DNA of 6,902 nucleotides, from the IMG/VR virus record IMGVR_UViG_2711768074_000020, positions 1-6,902 of that record; one strand, written 5' to 3'. A model generated the notes under the pieces. The model saw nothing but the letters and a program-made list of their open reading frames with translations. It did not search any database and was not told the DNA's origin. This DNA comes from a virus. Taxonomy: Duplodnaviria; Heunggongvirae; Uroviricota; Caudoviricetes. This document shows positions 1-6,902 of this stretch, in pieces. The translations under genes were made by a program, and so were the position numbers. Positions within the stretch are counted from its first letter, which is position 1. Each line of letters starts with the position of its first letter.

Positions 1-60
1 GAAAAAGTTCAAAAAATCGCTGCCGGGGAGGAAGGAAACTACCGGATGGAAAGAGTCCCC

Positions 61-555
61 CTAAAGCAGACTGACAGACATCACAAATCCCCGGGTGGGG
101 ATTTGTGTATAAGAGACAGCCTGCAACAGGGTGAGAATGGTTTTTAATTGCTCCGGTGAGAGCTGATTCAGCGGCGTCTGACCAAAGTTATGACGGATAT
201 AATCCGTGACCGCCTGACGATTATTCCCCAGACGTAAATACTCCCCTAATTGCGCTAAAAGCTGGCGGGCAGAATGGCTTTTTTGCGCGGCCAGCAGACG
301 TTGCGCCAGATTATGCTCAGCGGCAGGGAAGTGACGCGAAAGCAGCGGTGAATCTCCCGACAGACCAATATCGTGCCTGATACCCGCCCACAGTTCTGCT
401 CTTTGTTGTTGCGTCAGTGAGGTCACTTTCGTCATTAAGCTTTCCAGCGAAGTACGTTGCTGACTGGATAAAGGCTGATTGCCCGCGCCAGACGGCAGGT
501 TATCTCCCTGACCTGGTGGTTGCCCAGGAGGAGGGCCGGAAATAGGTTGTATCAT
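61..555 (-). CDS. Hypothetical protein with Pro/Gln/Gly-rich N-terminus; 3' end reads into an IS50/Tn5-like terminal repeat, so the C-terminus may be truncated or replaced
   Basis: 164-codon ORF in the supplied track; ATG at 555..553 preceded by AAGGA about 6 nt upstream (minus strand); N-terminal low-complexity PPPGQPPGQG segment followed by helical-looking sequence; the last ~19 codons overlap the IS-end-like 19-mer at 101..119. Family not recognised. Confidence 0.45.
   Translation of the reverse strand: MIQPISGPPPGQPPGQGDNLPSGAGNQPLSSQQRTSLESLMTKVTSLTQQQRAELWAGIRHDIGLSGDSPLLSRHFPAAEHNLAQRLLAAQKSHSARQLLAQLGEYLRLGNNRQAVTDYIRHNFGQTPLNQLSPEQLKTILTLLQAVSYTQIPTRGFVMSVSLL
101..119 (-). mobile_element. 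IS50/Tn5-like 19-bp terminal inverted repeat (terminus at 119; element body would extend left, off the window)
   Basis: Plus strand 101..119 ATTTGTGTATAAGAGACAG matches the Tn5 mosaic end AGATGTGTATAAGAGACAG at 17/19 positions and the IS50 outside end at 17/19 (reverse complement CTGTCTCTTATACACAAAT). It overlaps an 11-bp inverted repeat (82..92 / 97..107). Only one end is visible and no transposase is in the window. Confidence 0.35.
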
Positions 556-751
556 TACGTATCCTTATACCTGAAATCTTCGCAAGTATGCCTGGCCGCG
601 AGATTATGGCACACTTGTCCGGTTAACTCTCGTCTCATACAGGTAACACAAACGTGAAAATCCTTGTTGATGAAAAAAATGATGATTTAATTTATTGATA
701 TAAAAGGATTTATATCAGCACGTGTCCACGTAGTGACCACATTTTCGAGTT

Positions 752-795
752 ACAGATAACACAAAGCCCGTTTTCACGGGCTTTGTGTTATCTGT
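752..795. repeat. Perfect 20-bp inverted repeat with 4-nt loop (ACAGATAACACAAAGCCCGT-TTTC-ACGGGCTTTGTGTTATCTGT)
   Basis: Arms 752..771 and 776..795 are exact reverse complements; it lies 27 nt past the stop of the 823..1716 gene; there is no adjacent U-tract on either strand, so it is not a canonical intrinsic terminator. Confidence 0.6.
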
Positions 796-822
796 GATTG
801 TGGCTAAGCCACATGATTTATG

Positions 823-1716
823 CTATTTCCAGTTACAAGCAGCTTGAAGTGGTTTTAGCGCGTTTGACAGGCCGTTTAAATTGAAAGTTGCACTTACAGG
901 GCTCTCATTATAAGGAGTTATTTTTGTATACATTTTGTTTGAGTTGGCTAGTTTTCGGATGAAATCAATGTCATTACCTTTATAAAAAACAGCCTTTGTA
1001 TCTGTAGATACTAGCCAGTTTCGCTCAACTGCTTTCTGTTTATCAAGACGATAAAGCATGCTGGTTTGTTCAAGGCCTAAATATACATCCCAACTAAGAA
1101 ATACTTCGGTTTTCTTTTCTCGGCAAGCTATAAACAGAGTAGGAGTAACCGCTTCTCCAAATGGAGTTCTGATATAATCATCACTTTCTAACGATAAAAT
1201 TACATTTTTCGAATCATCAATTGGCGATGTAGTAATGGATGTGTGCCATTTTCCTACATCTGTGGCTTTCTCTAATTTTGATTCAGCTTGAACAGCTTTA
1301 TCCTGTGGGAATAGTTTATCGTAGCAGTTTAGTCTGGCTTCTTTATCATTTTCTGCTCGGCATTTAGATATCTCAGAAAGATTTGGTTGCTGAGCCTCTG
1401 TTGTTACTGGCTTTTCCGTTTTAGATTTTGAGTTTACAGATGGAGTAAATGTTGGAGAAAAAAAACGATCATAACAAGATAAACGTCTGTCATCATCTTT
1501 CTCATCAGGGCATTGATCTCTGCTTTCGAATTTTTCAGCAACTTTCGTTCGAGTCGGTTGTATTGACTTATCGTAACAAGAAAGTCTGTCTTTATTATTT
1601 TCTATTGCTCGGCACTGGAGTACTGCATTGAAGTTATTATGTTCAGTTGCTGCGTGAACAGGCAGTACACTAATTGATATAAATGATGCACCTATAGAAA
1701 AAATTATATTTTTCAT
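823..1716 (-). CDS. Secreted protein of unknown function with Sec signal peptide and three tandem C-x11-C-Y-D repeats plus a C-terminal ~150-aa domain
   Basis: 297-codon ORF; N-terminal MKN + hydrophobic core + VHA|A signal-peptidase I site, no lipobox Cys; repeats at residues 35-49, 69-83 and 119-133 (QCRAIENNKDRLSCYDK / QCPDEKDDDRRLSCYDR / KCRAENDKEARLNCYDK); AAGGA RBS 8 nt upstream, overlapping the end of the upstream gene (4-nt intergenic gap); AT-rich. Confidence 0.65.
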   Translation of the reverse strand: MKNIIFSIGASFISISVLPVHAATEHNNFNAVLQCRAIENNKDRLSCYDKSIQPTRTKVAEKFESRDQCPDEKDDDRRLSCYDRFFSPTFTPSVNSKSKTEKPVTTEAQQPNLSEISKCRAENDKEARLNCYDKLFPQDKAVQAESKLEKATDVGKWHTSITTSPIDDSKNVILSLESDDYIRTPFGEAVTPTLFIACREKKTEVFLSWDVYLGLEQTSMLYRLDKQKAVERNWLVSTDTKAVFYKGNDIDFIRKLANSNKMYTKITPYNESPVSATFNLNGLSNALKPLQAACNWK

Positions 1717-1720
1717 TTTG

Positions 1721-2053
1721 TTATCCTTTTGGTTTAGTAAGAAACACTAAAATTCCGATAATGATATCGCCAATAACCCATAAACTTCCAATGGTAATTA
1801 AACCTAAGCCTGTACCAATAACTGCACCGGCTTTTTCGGCATCGGATGTAGCATTATTTATTATTTCACTAGTGCCTCCCAGTCCAACTAAAAGCGTATA
1901 TATCATAAAAATATTAAATAATATAAAAATCCACTTAATGAGCTTTCCAAAAAATGAACGCTTAAGTTTTTTTATTTGTTTACCGCAAGCAGGGCAATAC
2001 AATGCTGAATCGCTCACCTCTTTCTGGCATTCAGGACATTTGATTAATGCCAT
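1721..2053 (-). CDS. Small zinc-ribbon membrane protein (N-terminal CPEC...CPAC ribbon, two predicted TM helices, glycine-zipper-like second helix)
   Basis: 110-codon ORF; ATG at 2053..2051 with AAGGAGG 7 nt upstream; CxxC-x10-CxxC at residues 6-23; hydrophobic stretches about 38-58 and 76-105 with G-x3-G spacing; AT-rich; first gene of an apparent two-gene operon. Confidence 0.65.
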   Translation of the reverse strand: MALIKCPECQKEVSDSALYCPACGKQIKKLKRSFFGKLIKWIFILFNIFMIYTLLVGLGGTSEIINNATSDAEKAGAVIGTGLGLITIGSLWVIGDIIIGILVFLTKPKG

Positions 2054-2107
2054 GTAATCCGCCTCCTTTGGATCAATACGAGTTGATATTTGTTACAAAA
2101 CATTTTG

Positions 2108-2135
2108 ATTTTATCAGATTTTTTTTTATTGATAA
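2108..2135 (-). promoter_or_regulatory. Putative sigma70-type promoter for the zinc-ribbon/secreted-protein operon
   Basis: On the minus strand, TTATCA (2135..2130), 16-nt spacer, TAAAAT (2113..2108), about 55 nt upstream of the ATG; A/T tract upstream. Hexamer matching by eye only. Confidence 0.2.
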
Positions 2136-2197
2136 GTGTCAATTGATTAGCTGGTATAGAGTGAGACATAAAGAAGGTCAGATCTGTATCAGTAGTG

Positions 2198-2233
2198 ATG
2201 CAAAAATCCCACAGTTTCATGGAATTTTTGCAT
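2198..2233 (-). terminator. Imperfect inverted repeat (ATGCAAAAATCC ... GGAATTTTTGCAT), candidate 3'-end structure of the Hok-like transcript or an operator
   Basis: 12/13-bp arms separated by 10-11 nt; lies about 80-120 nt past the Hok-like stop on the minus strand; no clean U-tract. Confidence 0.25.
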
Positions 2234-2283
2234 TTAGAGCCGTGAGATAGGGTGCCTTATCGACCTTACCCTGGCAACCGATT

Positions 2284-2305
2284 GACGGGGGATTACTCCC
2301 CCGTC
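2284..2305 (-). other. Stable hairpin (9-bp stem GACGGGGGA/TCCCCCGTC, 4-nt loop) immediately 3' of the Hok-like ORF
   Basis: Perfect 9-bp GC-rich stem 10 nt past the stop at 2317..2315; hok-family mRNAs are known to carry structured 3' ends. Confidence 0.35.
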
Positions 2306-2314
2306 GCGGTTTCC

Positions 2315-2455
2315 TTACTGCTTACACTGTAAGAACGCCGCAAACTCCGCTCCCCAGAAACTCATCCGTATTTCGCACAGCGAACCGTGCAACATCCAGA
2401 TGATGAGGATTACCGTCACGCAGAACGTGATGGCTGTAAGCGATTTTTGCGACAT
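2315..2455 (-). CDS. Hok/Gef (HokA/PndA-like) type I toxin family small membrane protein, 46 aa
   Basis: Translated by hand from the minus strand: MSQKSLTAITFCVTVILIIWMLHGSLCEIRMSFWGAEFAAFLQCKQ. N-terminal TM segment then W-M-x3-SLCE(I/L)-x8-E-x-AAFL-x-CK, in register with recalled HokA/PndA sequences (two conserved Cys). AAGGAG RBS 8 nt upstream. Absent from the ORF track, which appears to list only ORFs of 60 aa or more. Confidence 0.6.
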   Translation of the reverse strand: MSQKSLTAITFCVTVILIIWMLHGSLCEIRMSFWGAEFAAFLQCKQ

Positions 2456-2645
2456 AGCACTTGCTCCTTTTCCGGAGAGGCGCTAACCTTTCACTTGCTT
2501 AGGGTAGACGGTTAGGGCCTCGGTTAAACAAAAGTGTTTTCCGGGGCCTTTCCACATCTGGCCTTCGGGTATTCCCTCCGACCATCAGCCGAAAGGCACC
2601 CGCGCGTAATCTATCGCTTTTTTGTTACTCCGGCAATTCTGCTTG

Positions 2646-2906
2646 TTAATTCTGAGGTAAAGGCAAACTCATCTGATTGTTTCCCCTGTGTGAAGCTGGT
2701 AGCTCATGCCACGGGATACCTTCTGAAGAGTGAACGCCGGAGGCGTGTTTCGATGTGAATTTATGGAAAGCTTCCAGTGTTGAGAAGCATACGCCGCATT
2801 CCAGATTGTTACACTGGTAATACTTTTGCCGCACGGTGTTTGAATCATTTTCCGGACGACTTGTGCGGATACGGGCAGATGCGCCACAAAGCGGACAACG
2901 GAACAT
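2646..2906 (-). CDS. ogr: Ogr/Delta-family zinc-finger late-gene transcriptional activator (P2 Ogr-like)
   Basis: 86-codon ORF starting MFRCPLCGASARIRTSR...YYQCNNLEC: C-x2-C-x24-C-x4-C zinc-finger spacing and N-terminal MF-x-CPLC signature of Ogr; GGGAGG RBS 5 nt upstream; about 14 aa longer at the C-terminus than the ~72-aa P2 Ogr as recalled. Confidence 0.8.
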   Translation of the reverse strand: MFRCPLCGASARIRTSRPENDSNTVRQKYYQCNNLECGVCFSTLEAFHKFTSKHASGVHSSEGIPWHELPASHRGNNQMSLPLPQN

Positions 2907-3014
2907 AGCGACCTCCCTTAACGTGGTGTTGCCGCTATTCTAGATTGTACGATCCCTAATTCCAACTAACAGCTCGCTCTGTGCGAAGAGTGAAAATTGA
3001 ACTTTCAATAGTTG

Positions 3015-3043
3015 TTGAACTTCCATACATCCAATGTGAAAAT
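3015..3043 (+). promoter_or_regulatory. Putative sigma70-type promoter of the cargo gene
   Basis: TTGAAC (3015..3020), 17-nt spacer, GAAAAT (3038..3043) in a very AT-rich region about 55 nt upstream of the ATG at 3098; alternative -10 CATAAT at 3053..3058. Hexamer matching by eye only. Confidence 0.2.
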
Positions 3044-3097
3044 TCATACGTTCATAATAGTTAAAATTTAAAATATTGTATATCAGGTGAATAAAGC

Positions 3098-4120
3098 ATG
3101 GGAAGAGATATAACGCTGTACCCTAAAAAAGCAACTAGAAACGAACTTAAAAATTACCTTGAAAATTTAGGTTTTAAAAGGTGTAAACATTTGTGGGAAT
3201 GGCCCCAAGGAACGTTGAATTACTCTTGGTTTGATGATACGGACTTCAAATCTACAGATGGAGTTTCGGCTGATATATATCCTGTTTCAAATGACGAACT
3301 ACACATATCTGGTAATAAATGGGCATTGCATGTGCGTAATTTATATAGCGCTAGTTGGCATGATGTAAAAATGCTTAATGATGTTCTAAAAGGCGCACGG
3401 AGTCTTTTTGGTGGAACACTTATAGGTGATTATGGGAAAAATAGGTACGCTCCTCTATGGAAGGATTCTAGTAGTCCGATCAGTCGTGGCATTTCTTCAA
3501 TATTTAATCATGTCCATCATGAGATTTCCGCTGTTAAACATGCCTTACCTGAACCTTCTATTAAATTAAACCTACCGGAAGATGGCGGCTTATCCGAATA
3601 CTTTGATTACATGCAATGTATGGATCCCAGTAGAGTTATATATAATGGATTAGTACCTTTTGCGGTTGCTATGTTTGAATATTTTTTCTCTAGAGCTTTT
3701 CAAATACTTATAAAGTACGATCCTTTCGCAATAGCAAAAAGAACATCGTATAAGCAAAAAGTTGATTTTGATATTCTGCTTGAGATAGAGAAAGGAAATA
3801 TTTCAATAGAAAGTGTTATTGCAAGAAATTACACTTTTCAAAACTTAACCCACCTAAACAAAGCATATAAAGAGTGGCTGGATATAGATGTGAGAGCGAT
3901 TCTTTATAAGAAAAAAAGAATTGGAAAATCAGTTGATTTTCTTGAGAATCGAATTTCTGAAATCATACAATATAGACATGGGATAGTTCATCACTTTGAG
4001 TTGGATAGGACCTTAAATCGGGATGGATATATTCATATATTAGATGCGATAGAAAAAAGCATAATTGAATTTATCCATTACATAGAAGGCAAATACAAAT
4101 TTAAATTAAATGCGTATTAA
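3098..4120 (+). CDS. Hypothetical 340-aa protein, AT-rich moron between D and ogr; helical C-terminal region with an R-x4-H (HEPN-like) motif; candidate abortive-infection/defence protein
   Basis: 340-codon ORF on the strand opposite both flanking phage genes; AGGTG RBS about 8 nt upstream; sampled GC roughly one-third versus over one-half in D and FI (counted by eye); motif YRHGIVHHF at residues 292-300; no recognisable Walker or other catalytic motif in the N-terminal half. Confidence 0.75.
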   Translation: MGRDITLYPKKATRNELKNYLENLGFKRCKHLWEWPQGTLNYSWFDDTDFKSTDGVSADIYPVSNDELHISGNKWALHVRNLYSASWHDVKMLNDVLKGARSLFGGTLIGDYGKNRYAPLWKDSSSPISRGISSIFNHVHHEISAVKHALPEPSIKLNLPEDGGLSEYFDYMQCMDPSRVIYNGLVPFAVAMFEYFFSRAFQILIKYDPFAIAKRTSYKQKVDFDILLEIEKGNISIESVIARNYTFQNLTHLNKAYKEWLDIDVRAILYKKKRIGKSVDFLENRISEIIQYRHGIVHHFELDRTLNRDGYIHILDAIEKSIIEFIHYIEGKYKFKLNAY

Positions 4121-4148
4121 GCAATCAACCTTACATAGGGATGACAAA

Positions 4149-4172
4149 GTCCGCTTCTGACACGGAGCGGAC
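4149..4172. terminator. Putative bidirectional terminator hairpin between the convergent cargo gene and D
   Basis: 9-bp stem (one G·U pair) with 6-nt loop, GTCCGCTTC-TGACAC-GGAGCGGAC; T-rich sequence follows on the plus strand and TTTGTCAT on the minus strand; lies between the stops at 4120 (+) and 4241 (-). Confidence 0.4.
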
Positions 4173-4240
4173 CGTCGTTTATGTTTAATTCTATACTGTA
4201 AACTTGCCAGTTTAAGTCTGAGCTAATATGTCTAAGTTGC

Positions 4241-5350
4241 TCACTCTGTTTCTGCTATCCATTCCGGGATTTTTGCCTCAAGCTCAAGCTGTGTGGTAAA
4301 GCCGCTGTTATCAATGGTGTGCTCGGCTTTTGCAATAATCCAGTCCTGATTATCAATCTCGCTTTTAAAGCCTGTTACCGTGCCATGCATTTCGGGGTAG
4401 AGTTCTGCGCGTCCGCGTGCCAGCATGATGGAGAATGATGCGGCTCCGCGTTGTAGCTGCTGCCACTTTGCCGCCGCTGCGCGTCTTGCTGCCTGCTCGT
4501 TCTGATAAGTCTTGCGTAACACAAACACATTGCCTTCCGCGCCTTCCATATAATCACCTTCACGGCTGCTGCTTTTCTCCTTTTTGGGTTTTGGCGGTTT
4601 GCGGCGTTTCACGCTGACTTTTTTCTTTTTCCCGTAATTAAGATCAAGCCAGTAGGCGCGTACACCCGTATACGCCTCGCGGTCAGCAATGCGGAACTGA
4701 TGGCGATCGCCGCTGCTGCGTGTGATGGCAAACGATGGCAACGGCTGGCCCTGCGCGTTCACGCCACCTCCGGGCATGATGAATAACAGATTACCGCTTT
4801 TTACCGTGGTGATTGCGCCCAGCATTTCCGCCATGCGCGTAAGGAAGGACATGTCGCTTTCTTCGGTCTGGTCGGCGTGGTCGATTTCGATATCCATCAG
4901 CATTTCGCTGATTTGCGGTTTCAGACCATACCGATGAGCGATGGCGGATACCACACGCTCAACGGTCACATCATGCCAGGACACCTCACGTTTAACGTTA
5001 AATTCATCCCGAAAATCTGCGCTTCTGGCTGAAACAGTCAGCCTGTCCGGCGGTCCTTCGTGAGCGATTTCATCAACAATGTAAGTGCCTTTTTCTGTCA
5101 GCGGTTCCCCTTTCCAGCCAATGAGAACCGTCAGACGCGCGCCCCGTGGCGGTAGCTGCAACTGGCCATCGGCATCATCCAGCGTGATGGTGAGCTGGTC
5201 CGCCTCAAATCCCCGGTTGTCGGTCAGTGACAGGTTCATCAGGCGTTCTGCCACGCCGGACAGCGTTTTACCCTCGGCGAGAATATCAAAATCCGGCATT
5301 TTCACGGGGTCTGTGCCCTGACTGAGCAATTGCATGGTGGTGTCGGTCAT
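4241..5350 (-). CDS. D: P2 gpD-like tail protein (late control gene D / gp27-VgrG-like baseplate hub family)
   Basis: ORF track gives 4241..5482, but the ATG at 5350 has a strong GGAGGGAG Shine-Dalgarno 3 nt upstream, whereas the 44-codon upstream extension is Ser/Thr/Arg-rich with no RBS. The 369-aa product is close to P2 gpD in size; motifs such as ESDMSFLTRMAEMLG resemble the gp27/VgrG N-terminal hub fold; same strand as and adjacent to ogr. Confidence 0.7.
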   Translation of the reverse strand: MTDTTMQLLSQGTDPVKMPDFDILAEGKTLSGVAERLMNLSLTDNRGFEADQLTITLDDADGQLQLPPRGARLTVLIGWKGEPLTEKGTYIVDEIAHEGPPDRLTVSARSADFRDEFNVKREVSWHDVTVERVVSAIAHRYGLKPQISEMLMDIEIDHADQTEESDMSFLTRMAEMLGAITTVKSGNLLFIMPGGGVNAQGQPLPSFAITRSSGDRHQFRIADREAYTGVRAYWLDLNYGKKKKVSVKRRKPPKPKKEKSSSREGDYMEGAEGNVFVLRKTYQNEQAARRAAAAKWQQLQRGAASFSIMLARGRAELYPEMHGTVTGFKSEIDNQDWIIAKAEHTIDNSGFTTQLELEAKIPEWIAETE

Positions 5351-5507
5351 CTGCTCCCTCCCTGTGTGGCATGGTCGCATGTGCGTGCGGAGGGGGTTAC
5401 TGCTTTTTGTTGTCGCCGTGGCGGGAGAACGGCGCAGGGGTGAGATTACGCGCGTGGTGGGTGATGATTGTTGCCGAATCATTTAACGGATACAAGGGGC
5501 TGAAGCT
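5351..5507. promoter_or_regulatory. Divergent intergenic region between D (-) and FI (+), presumably carrying late promoter(s)
   Basis: 157-bp GC-rich spacer between two divergent start codons, each with its own RBS (AGGGG 8 nt upstream of the FI ATG). No clear TGT-N12-ACA Ogr-type dyad was seen by eye. Confidence 0.3.
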
Positions 5508-6692
5508 ATGAGTGAAACTCGTTTTCATGGTGCCCGTGTTACGGAAAATACCGACCTGGTAACAGCGATTAACGATGTTGATTCCAGCGTTATCGGTATC
5601 GTGGTAACGGCGGATGATGCGGACGCGAAGCTGTTCCCGCTGAACAAGCCCACACTGCTGACCCGCGTCAATGACGTGCTGGGAAAATGCGGAACAACGG
5701 GGACGCTTTATCGTGCGCTTAAGGCCATCGCAGACCAGGTGAGCACAAAGGTGATCGTCGTTCGCGTGGCTGAACACAAAGAAGAAGACGAAAAGACGCA
5801 GGATCAACTGGTTATCGGTGGTTCTGAGGATGACGGCAGCTATACGGGGATGTATGCGCTGCTTGTTGCAGAGCAGGATGAAAGCATCGGATACCGTCCG
5901 CGTATTCTGGCCGCGCCGGAGCTGGACACGGAGGCGGTGACAAAATCCCTGTGCGTGATTGCGGGTAAACTGCGCGCATTTGTGTATGCCTCATGTCACG
6001 GCTGTAACACGATGGCTGAAGCGATTACCTACCGCCAGAAATTCAACGAACGTGAAGTGATGCTCTTATGGCCGGACTTCATCGCCTACAACCCGAAAAG
6101 TGGCGAAAACGAAACGTTCCCCGCGCCTGCTTATGCGTGCGGCCTTCGTGCGTACATTGACCATGAGCAGGGCTGGCACAAATCGCTGTCCAACGTTCCG
6201 GTTAAAAATGTGCTGGGGATGTCGAGGCATGTGTTCTGGTCGTTGCAGGCCGAAGACAGCGATGCCAACAGCCTCAACAACAAAGAAATCACGACCATTA
6301 TTCGTCGCAACGGGTTCCGCTTCTGGGGCAACCGCACACCGGAAACGAACGCCTACATTTTTGAGGTGTATACCCGAACCGCACAGGTGCTGGCTGATTC
6401 AATTGCGGAAGCGCAGTTTGAAACCATCGACAGTCCACTGACGCCTGCGAACGTGAAGGATGTTATCAGTGCCATCAGGGCAAAACTGGATTCACTGGTT
6501 ACTGCCGGGAAACTGATTGGCGCAGAGTGCTGGTATGACGTGGTGGATAACAGCACCACGGATTTACGTCAGGGGCGTGTGCGTATTCGCTACAAATATA
6601 CGCCCGTTCCGCCACTGGAAGACATGGAGCTTTACCAGACGTTTACTGATGAATACTTTGAACCCGCATTTGCGGTGCTGGGAGGTGCCTGA
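5508..6692 (+). CDS. FI: P2 FI-like contractile tail sheath protein
   Basis: 394-codon ORF; motifs FPLNKP, GFRFWGNRT, YTRTAQV, HEQGWHKSLSNV and YKYTPVPPLED match the recalled P2-family tail sheath; the stop overlaps the next start (TGATG). Confidence 0.85.
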   Translation: MSETRFHGARVTENTDLVTAINDVDSSVIGIVVTADDADAKLFPLNKPTLLTRVNDVLGKCGTTGTLYRALKAIADQVSTKVIVVRVAEHKEEDEKTQDQLVIGGSEDDGSYTGMYALLVAEQDESIGYRPRILAAPELDTEAVTKSLCVIAGKLRAFVYASCHGCNTMAEAITYRQKFNEREVMLLWPDFIAYNPKSGENETFPAPAYACGLRAYIDHEQGWHKSLSNVPVKNVLGMSRHVFWSLQAEDSDANSLNNKEITTIIRRNGFRFWGNRTPETNAYIFEVYTRTAQVLADSIAEAQFETIDSPLTPANVKDVISAIRAKLDSLVTAGKLIGAECWYDVVDNSTTDLRQGRVRIRYKYTPVPPLEDMELYQTFTDEYFEPAFAVLGGA

Positions 6693-6902
6693 TGGCTGTG
6701 CCAAAACATCTTCGCTTTTTTACGCTGTTTGTGGATGGTGAAAACGAAGTGGGTAAGGTGACGTCCGTCACTCTGCCCAAACTGACGCGCAAAACCGACA
6801 GCTACCGGGGGGGCGGCATGATGGGTGCGGTAAGTATTGATCTCGGTCTGGACGACTCCGCGCTTGATGCGAGCTTTGTCATGGGGGGCGCAGTTCGTGA
6901 GC
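6692..6902 (+). CDS. FII: P2 FII-like tail tube protein (5' portion; runs off the window end)
   Basis: Translated by hand: MAVPKHLRFFTLFVDGENEVGKVTSVTLPKLTRKTDSYRGGGMMGAVSIDLGLDDSALDASFVMGGAVRE, matching the recalled P2 FII N-terminus (VTLPKLTRK, YRG-G-M, DLGLDD); GGAGGT RBS 5 nt upstream; no stop before position 6902. Confidence 0.8.
   Translation, partial: MAVPKHLRFFTLFVDGENEVGKVTSVTLPKLTRKTDSYRGGGMMGAVSIDLGLDDSALDASFVMGGAVRE

Follow-up and report, generated by a model that had tools for sequence, protein, structure and literature searches.

In P2 sensu stricto, the tail genes FI-FII-E-T-U-D and the activator gene ogr form a single operon. The window analyzed here, which is the whole of a 6,902-nt stretch (positions 1 to 6,902 of IMG/VR record IMGVR_UViG_2711768074_000020), departs from this order, as FI and FII lie on the opposite strand to D and ogr. 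The locus thus raises the question of whether the arrangement marks a rearranged or composite prophage or is normal for the phages that carry it. A first-pass annotation made from the sequence alone treated the order as an anomaly and proposed three possible origins, namely an inversion, a junction between two prophages or remnants, or an unusual lineage-specific architecture. It also raised the suspicion of a misassembly.

The window matches the chromosome of Escherichia coli strain PEC240 at 99.9% identity, and its gene content was consistent between six-frame ORFs, Pfam and the PEC240 annotation in RefSeq (Table 1). D on the minus strand and FI on the plus strand were confirmed to have neighbouring, diverging starts separated by a 157-bp spacer. 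The longest frame for D (4241-5482) was rejected as a spurious 5' extension over this spacer, because RefSeq begins the gene at 5350, a start that is also kept in relatives. The first-pass annotation was right that ogr shares the strand of D; however, the interval that it gave, 4241-6692, does not include ogr, which lies at 2646-2906, with a 1288-bp insertion between the two genes. The encoded protein has cysteines at residues 4, 7, 32 and 37 (C-X2-C-X24-C-X4-C), compared with C-X2-C-X22-C-X4-C in the zinc finger of P2 Ogr (PMC3931495). A late activator of this Ogr/Delta zinc-finger type, encoded near the att end of the prophage, is a trait of the Peduoviridae.

Table 1. Genes and sequence elements of the window; promoter elements are predictions.
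Feature	Position	Strand	Support or remark
flk, 5' part	left end of window	minus	
VasI/TagO-like gene	823-1716	minus	
Zinc-ribbon membrane protein	1721-2053	minus	
hok-family toxin	2315-2455	minus	
ogr, Ogr/Delta zinc-finger late activator	2646-2906	minus	Pfam PF04606 Ogr_Delta, E 5e-14; RefSeq-annotated
AT-rich insertion, 1288 bp	2943-4230	plus	missing from P88 (blastn)
340-aa AT-rich ORF, RiboL-PSP-HEPN family	3098-4120	plus	
D, tail/baseplate hub protein, 369 aa	4241-5350	minus	Pfam PF05954 Phage_GPD, E 3.9e-17; RefSeq start
D/FI intergenic spacer, 157 bp	5351-5507		
Predicted extended -10 of D promoter, TG-C-GACCAT in D direction	5371-5379	minus	predicted start ~5364
Ogr-box-like dyad TGT-N12-AGA within TTTTGTTGT-N12-AGAAC	5411-5428, centre 5419.5		one mismatch to TGT-N12-ACA
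Predicted -10 of FI promoter (pF), GATGAT	5463-5468	plus	predicted start ~5475
FI, tail sheath, 394 aa	5508-6692	plus	three sheath domains, Pfam PF04984, PF22671, PF17482
FII, tail tube, cut by window end	6692-6902	plus	Pfam PF04985 Phage_tube, E 1.6e-17

The insertion that separates ogr from D, and that carries the 340-aa ORF, has a GC content of 31-39% in 400-bp intervals (starts 3001-3801) versus approximately 52-57% in D, FI and FII. It is cargo and lies outside the tail module. Homologs of the ORF product mostly contain PF18735, for which the window copy scored 22.5 bits, under the Pfam threshold; scans against PADLOC and PHROG gave no match for this ORF. The RiboL-PSP-HEPN family to which the protein belongs is strongly conserved. 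In the clade described below, the site between ogr and D contains different cargo in other prophages.

A complete 35.8-kb prophage of the P2 family occupies the site between flk and pdxB in E. coli, and the window covers its attR-proximal end. From the left, the PEC240 locus reads flk, the VasI-like gene, the zinc-ribbon gene, hok, ogr, the 340-aa ORF and D, with all but the ORF on the minus strand. FII is succeeded by E, E', T and U, also on the plus strand, in agreement with the prediction that E, T and U would be found to the right. Beyond U lie a serine DNA invertase gene (minus strand), an invertible tail-fibre segment, H I J W V S R, the lysis genes and X L M N O (H to O all on the minus strand), then P and Q (plus strand). 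The rightmost part of the prophage comprises the replication genes, cox, C and int, adjoining pdxB. The set of late genes characteristic of P2 (Q P, O N M L X, the lysis genes, R S V W J I H G, and FI FII E E' T U D) was present according to the RefSeq annotation of the 99.9% identical locus, Pfam matches for D, FI and FII, and tblastn searches with FI, FII, T, U, I and J. In orientation, the FI-FII-E-E'-T-U block alone is inverted relative to P2, and D and ogr are oriented with the head and baseplate genes (O..H). A hairpin with a 12-bp stem and A and T runs lies between the convergent U and invertase genes and is plausibly a bidirectional terminator.

A junction of two prophages, or the edge of a prophage remnant, at the D/FI boundary is very improbable. 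Apart from the departure from P2 order itself, nothing pointed to such a junction. A single alignment to Escherichia phage P88 instead continued across the boundary at 96% identity, from D through the spacer and FI..U into the invertase gene, and one insertion between flk and pdxB contains the entire prophage, from int to ogr.

We then surveyed the spread of the divergent layout. Diverse D proteins, including that of P2, were aligned, 80 loci were fetched (one genome per species), and the positions of FI, FII, T, U, ogr, I and J in these loci were determined by tblastn. Every one of the 60 loci with a D at least 60% identical to the window D had the divergent order, with FI-U on the opposite strand and FI starting approximately 150-250 bp upstream of D. 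These loci came from approximately 27 enterobacterial genera, including Salmonella, Klebsiella, Xenorhabdus, Photorhabdus, Providencia and Yersinia. A P2-type D, with 49-54% identity to the window D, was encoded at the other 20 loci, and all of these were colinear. The ogr gene was downstream of D and on its strand in all 80. Orientation thus tracks D sequence similarity perfectly, as expected of a single old event, and we interpret the divergent D/FI order as an old inversion of FI-U that became fixed across a large P2-like clade and is borne by viable phages.

The same layout was frequent in finished genomes. A 1-kb probe across the D/FI junction matched without a break in 1356 of 5426 complete E. 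coli genomes, and 41 phage records had D-FI-FII contiguous in the same arrangement. The suspicion that the junction is an assembly artefact is difficult to reconcile with these counts, or with its contiguity in isolated phage genomes and in 60 independent species assemblies, and we consider the chance of an artefact negligible.

The order that had been flagged as anomalous is therefore the natural order of a well-sampled P2-like lineage, and the colinear FI-to-ogr order is a property of P2's own clade and no requirement for the family. Among the origins first proposed, a lineage-specific architecture held, though it is not an unusual one; a two-prophage junction did not, and an inversion did not if a recent one is meant. 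Burkholderia phage KS5 has U next to D with both on one strand, which corresponds to the colinear order (PMC3091744). This adjacency in one Burkholderia phage is a weak hint that the colinear order could be ancestral. The literature that we searched contained no paper explicitly describing the inverted order. The layout is nevertheless already known in the sense that it is visible in deposited, classified genomes of at least four Peduoviridae genera, represented by phages P88, 3LV2017, phiT5282H and ST16-OXA48phi5.4.

Because a serine invertase gene sits immediately beside U, a recent flip of FI-U in this strain or prophage, either by this Hin/Cin-type enzyme or through short inverted repeats, has to be weighed. 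Invertases in the Z/fun hotspot of P2 are accompanied by inversion of adjacent genes (preprint 10.1101/2024.10.15.618418), which also speaks for such an event. However, the crossover site occurs only twice, at 31652-31670 and 33570-33588 of the PEC240 locus, and both copies flank the 1.9-kb tail-fibre segment. Inverted repeats at the ends of the FI-U block, which had been suggested as a possible trace of a breakpoint, were sought, and no pair joined the D/FI spacer to the U end. An invertase gene was beside U in 7 of the 60 divergent loci and beside FI in 2 of the 20 colinear ones, and 3LV2017 has the identical order without an annotated invertase. A single orientation was found across the 1356 E. 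coli genomes and the 60 species loci. From the position of the crossover sites, the lack of inverted repeats and the distribution of invertases, we conclude that the block is not switchable, and we consider a recent flip to be highly improbable. A Hin/Gin/Cin-type invertible segment was likewise rejected as a description of FI-U, since its ends lack crossover sites and its orientation shows no relation to whether an invertase is present.

With FI-U inverted, D and FI have only the 157-bp spacer between their starts. The consensus for P2 late promoters is TGT-N12-ACA (cited in PMC3931495), and the spacer contains one such dyad. The extended form of this motif, TTTTGTTGT-N12-AGAAC, recurs in the prophage's own O/P spacer. 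The predicted transcription start for D is 14 nt upstream of the D ATG, just ahead of a GGGAGGGAG ribosome-binding site. A generic sigma-70 promoter scan of the spacer returned no match; this is uninformative, as it is the result expected for activator-dependent promoters without a -35 hexamer.

For comparison, 60 distinct D/FI spacers were lined up with the box as the fixed point and no gaps allowed. The box read TGT-N12-ACA in 35 spacers, with AGA as the right half in 20 and AGG in 3, and TCT..AGA in the remaining 2. On the FI side, a hexamer at +43.5 to +48.5 from the box centre was conserved at A2, A5 and T6 (59/60 each). At the mirrored distance of 43.5-48.5 nt on the D side, a second hexamer was conserved at A2 (57/60) and T6 (55/60) and was preceded by TGn (G in 54/60); in the window, this hexamer is a weak one, GACCAT. 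The box and both -10-like hexamers kept invariant mirrored distances, with no indels, in all 60 spacers; these spacers are related and inheritance could explain part of the conservation, yet the remaining columns were mostly near random. A conserved GC-rich CACGCGCGCG block abuts the D-side element. A 3-nt shift of the D-side element in one subclade, seen in a MAFFT alignment of the spacers, was discarded as an alignment artefact on the basis of the ungapped box anchoring. As a control, we examined 14 pF regions from the colinear clade. The FI-side hexamer was kept in these (A2 13/14, A5 14/14, T6 13/14), and the mirrored D-side position showed no conservation.

This geometry has a mapped counterpart in P2. 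The P2 record lists one activator binding site for the divergent promoters pP and pO, whose mapped starts at 3016 and 3127 are 111 bp apart. Placing starts 55.5 nt to either side of the box centre gives these two positions exactly, and for P2 pF the same rule gives 17625, compared with the annotated 17626-8. As in the window, pP/pO have one TGT-N12-ACA-type dyad between divergent late genes, with -10s located 43.5-48.5 nt on either side of the dyad centre, implying starts 111 bp apart. They differ from the window pair in that the latter consists of pF and a D promoter, both with predicted starts, and has an extended -10 (TGn) on the D side.

From the conserved geometry of the box and hexamers, the match to pP/pO and the absence of the D-side element in the colinear clade, we infer a bidirectional, Ogr-dependent late promoter in the spacer, composed of pF and a promoter that we call pD. 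The single box at 5411-5428, approximately 55 bp upstream of both predicted starts, would serve both directions in an arrangement of the pP/pO type, with pF reading rightward from ~5475 and pD leftward from ~5364. D-ogr would then be transcribed divergently from FI, and the tail genes would form two convergent units, V..H-G(-invertase) and FI..U, meeting at the putative bidirectional terminator.

It is also conceivable that the layout is the norm of the clade but that D is expressed without the shared Ogr box, from an independent promoter such as an activator-independent extended -10 or by some other route. The conserved D-side block would then have another role. The conserved TGn of the D-side element is compatible with this, as is the CACGCGCGCG block beside it. 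In sigma-70 promoters, an extended -10 can function without a -35 hexamer or an activator. Against an Ogr-independent D stand the exact mirrored hexamer-to-box distance, free of indels in 60 spacers, and the identity of this geometry to that of the mapped pP/pO pair. D is moreover a late structural gene, and in P2 its expression depends on Ogr through the F operon (PMC3931495). We regard expression of D independently of the Ogr box as unlikely, although it retains some plausibility.

We favor, with moderate confidence, the interpretation that the inversion created a fifth late promoter, pD, on the sole Ogr box of pF, such that the sheath operon and D-ogr would be fired in opposite directions. 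Because ogr is directly downstream of D in most members of the clade, pD would, if this is true, set up a late positive-feedback loop for Ogr that is free of read-through of the 6-kb F operon, unlike in P2. The spacer would also illustrate how, after a rearrangement, an activator site with dyad symmetry can come to serve two directions. No description of a pF/pD promoter pair was found in the literature that we searched. The pair sharing one Ogr box, a variant of the pP/pO design, may be the only element of this locus that is previously undescribed.

For the locus as a whole, it is very likely that the window comes from a P88-like prophage in which an inverted FI-U block is the norm of the clade and the D/FI spacer would act as a shared Ogr-dependent late promoter. 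The textbook P2 order is not universal in its family, and our result is mainly a correction in this respect. About one in four complete E. coli genomes contains a member of the clade with the inverted sheath-to-U block, and the clade extends across the Enterobacterales. Since the layout is the norm of this clade, annotators and prophage callers should not report it as a breakpoint, chimera or remnant.

The closest known system is Escherichia phage P88 (Xuanwuvirus, NC_026014), and the whole-prophage comparison proposed in the first-pass annotation found the two colinear; against P2 it showed the FI-U block inverted. Gene order in P88 is identical throughout to that of the window's prophage, and the late region, including D, the spacer and FI-U, is 96-97% identical, with agreement on both sides of the junction. 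The segment 4231-6902, which contains D, has 97.8% DNA identity to P88 (blastn), and the D proteins are 96% identical in amino acid sequence (tblastn). Over the genome, 74.6% of P88 was aligned at a mean identity of 95.7%, or approximately 71% when scaled to the full length. This value is right on the ICTV borderline for a genus, which is a nucleotide similarity to the type phage of about 70% or more along the genome. P88 differs in lacking the 1288-bp insertion between ogr and D, in its tail-fibre segment, and in some early genes and the cargo beyond hok. P88 is inducible and plaque-forming and has a contractile tail (PMC5285337), and the related phage PhiSM of Citrobacter rodentium is active (PMC6456863).

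More distant relatives retain the layout. Klebsiella phage 3LV2017 (Reginaelenavirus), Enterobacter phage phiT5282H (Novemvirus) and Klebsiella phage ST16-OXA48phi5.4 (Reipivirus) share the divergence of D from FI-FII-E-T-U, have ogr after D where it is annotated, and are approximately 69-72% identical in DNA sequence over D-FI. They differ in the region past U. In 3LV2017, no invertase is annotated, and phiT5282H has a tail-fibre assembly gene immediately past U; the available stretch of ST16-OXA48phi5.4 ends ~560 bp past U and says nothing on an invertase.

P2 itself (Peduovirus, NC_001895) shares these genes and has D, ogr and O..H in the same relative orientation, and the window D is approximately 51% identical to its P2 counterpart. 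In P2, the F operon runs FI-FII-E-E'-T-U-D and is followed by ogr, whereas in the window's prophage FI-U is inverted, and D is no longer the last gene of that operon and has an upstream region of its own. On the FI side, the box-to-(-10) geometry of the window matches that of P2 pF.

The gap between D and ogr is usually short (~40-70 bp) in the clade of P2-like phages with divergent D and FI, and several of its prophages carry unrelated ORFs on the opposite strand within it (see table). The D-ogr gap of this clade looks like a hotspot for cargo. One of the occupied gaps, that of L006, lies on a contig labelled Vagococcus sp., a Firmicute; the prophage on this contig shares 95-98% identity with that of E. 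coli, and the contig probably comes from a contaminated or mislabelled assembly.

Coordinates of the prophage cargo and of occupied D-ogr gaps
Feature	Locus	Coordinates	Strand	Remarks
Zinc-ribbon membrane protein and VasI/TagO-like protein	window	823-2053	-	between hok and flk
D-ogr gap, AT-rich insertion	window	2943-4230		1288 bp; not in phage P88; contains the 340-aa ORF
ORF for 340-aa protein	window	3098-4120	+	inside the 1288-bp insertion
D-ogr gap	L006	11229-12389		opposite-strand ORF, 386 aa
D-ogr gap	L049	11031-12335		opposite-strand ORF, 434-aa membrane protein

Members of the 340-aa protein's family from Pantoea, Proteus, Shewanella, Aeromonas, Pseudomonas and Methylococcaceae share 64-87% identity. 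Most members of its family contain the RiboL-PSP-HEPN domain (Pfam PF18735), and the protein itself has an R-x4-H motif at residue 293; scans with PADLOC and PHROG returned no match. We regard the ORF as a candidate for a single-gene HEPN defence gene.

The RefSeq name of the VasI/TagO-like protein suggested that it and the neighboring zinc-ribbon protein belong to a type VI secretion locus. We rejected this assignment because each of the two proteins matches a PHROG family and a Salmonella prophage (L047) has a homologous pair at 11458-12455, next after its ogr gene. The pair is therefore prophage cargo.

The longest reading frame for D (window 4241-5482, minus strand, 413 aa) spans the entire putative promoter spacer between D and FI, and the record of phage P88 has a small "hypothetical protein" annotated around the same area; both are likely annotation artefacts. 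Among the divergent loci, only L040 (Klebsiella sp. WOUb02) has a long D-to-FI distance (~850 bp). The D match at this locus also starts late; the locus could carry an insertion, or the 5' end of its D could be damaged.

Outside the window, on the nearly identical E. coli chromosome L001, a perfect hairpin with a 12-bp stem (AAAACCGCTAAT-ggtcag-ATTAGCGGTTTT, 30972-31001) sits between the convergent genes U and invertase, and is likely a bidirectional terminator that would close both tail operons.

Within the D/FI spacer, a conserved GC-rich block (window 5378-5389, consensus CACGCGCGCG) adjoins the predicted D-side -10, and the O/P spacer of the same prophage has a similar block, CGCGCGCGGG, ahead of its P-side -10 (L001, ~42854-42863). 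In the Providencia loci L041 and L049, the activator box of the D/FI spacer is the palindrome GGTTCTC...GAGAACC (TCT-N12-AGA) rather than TGT-N12-ACA, and may reflect an altered specificity of Ogr.
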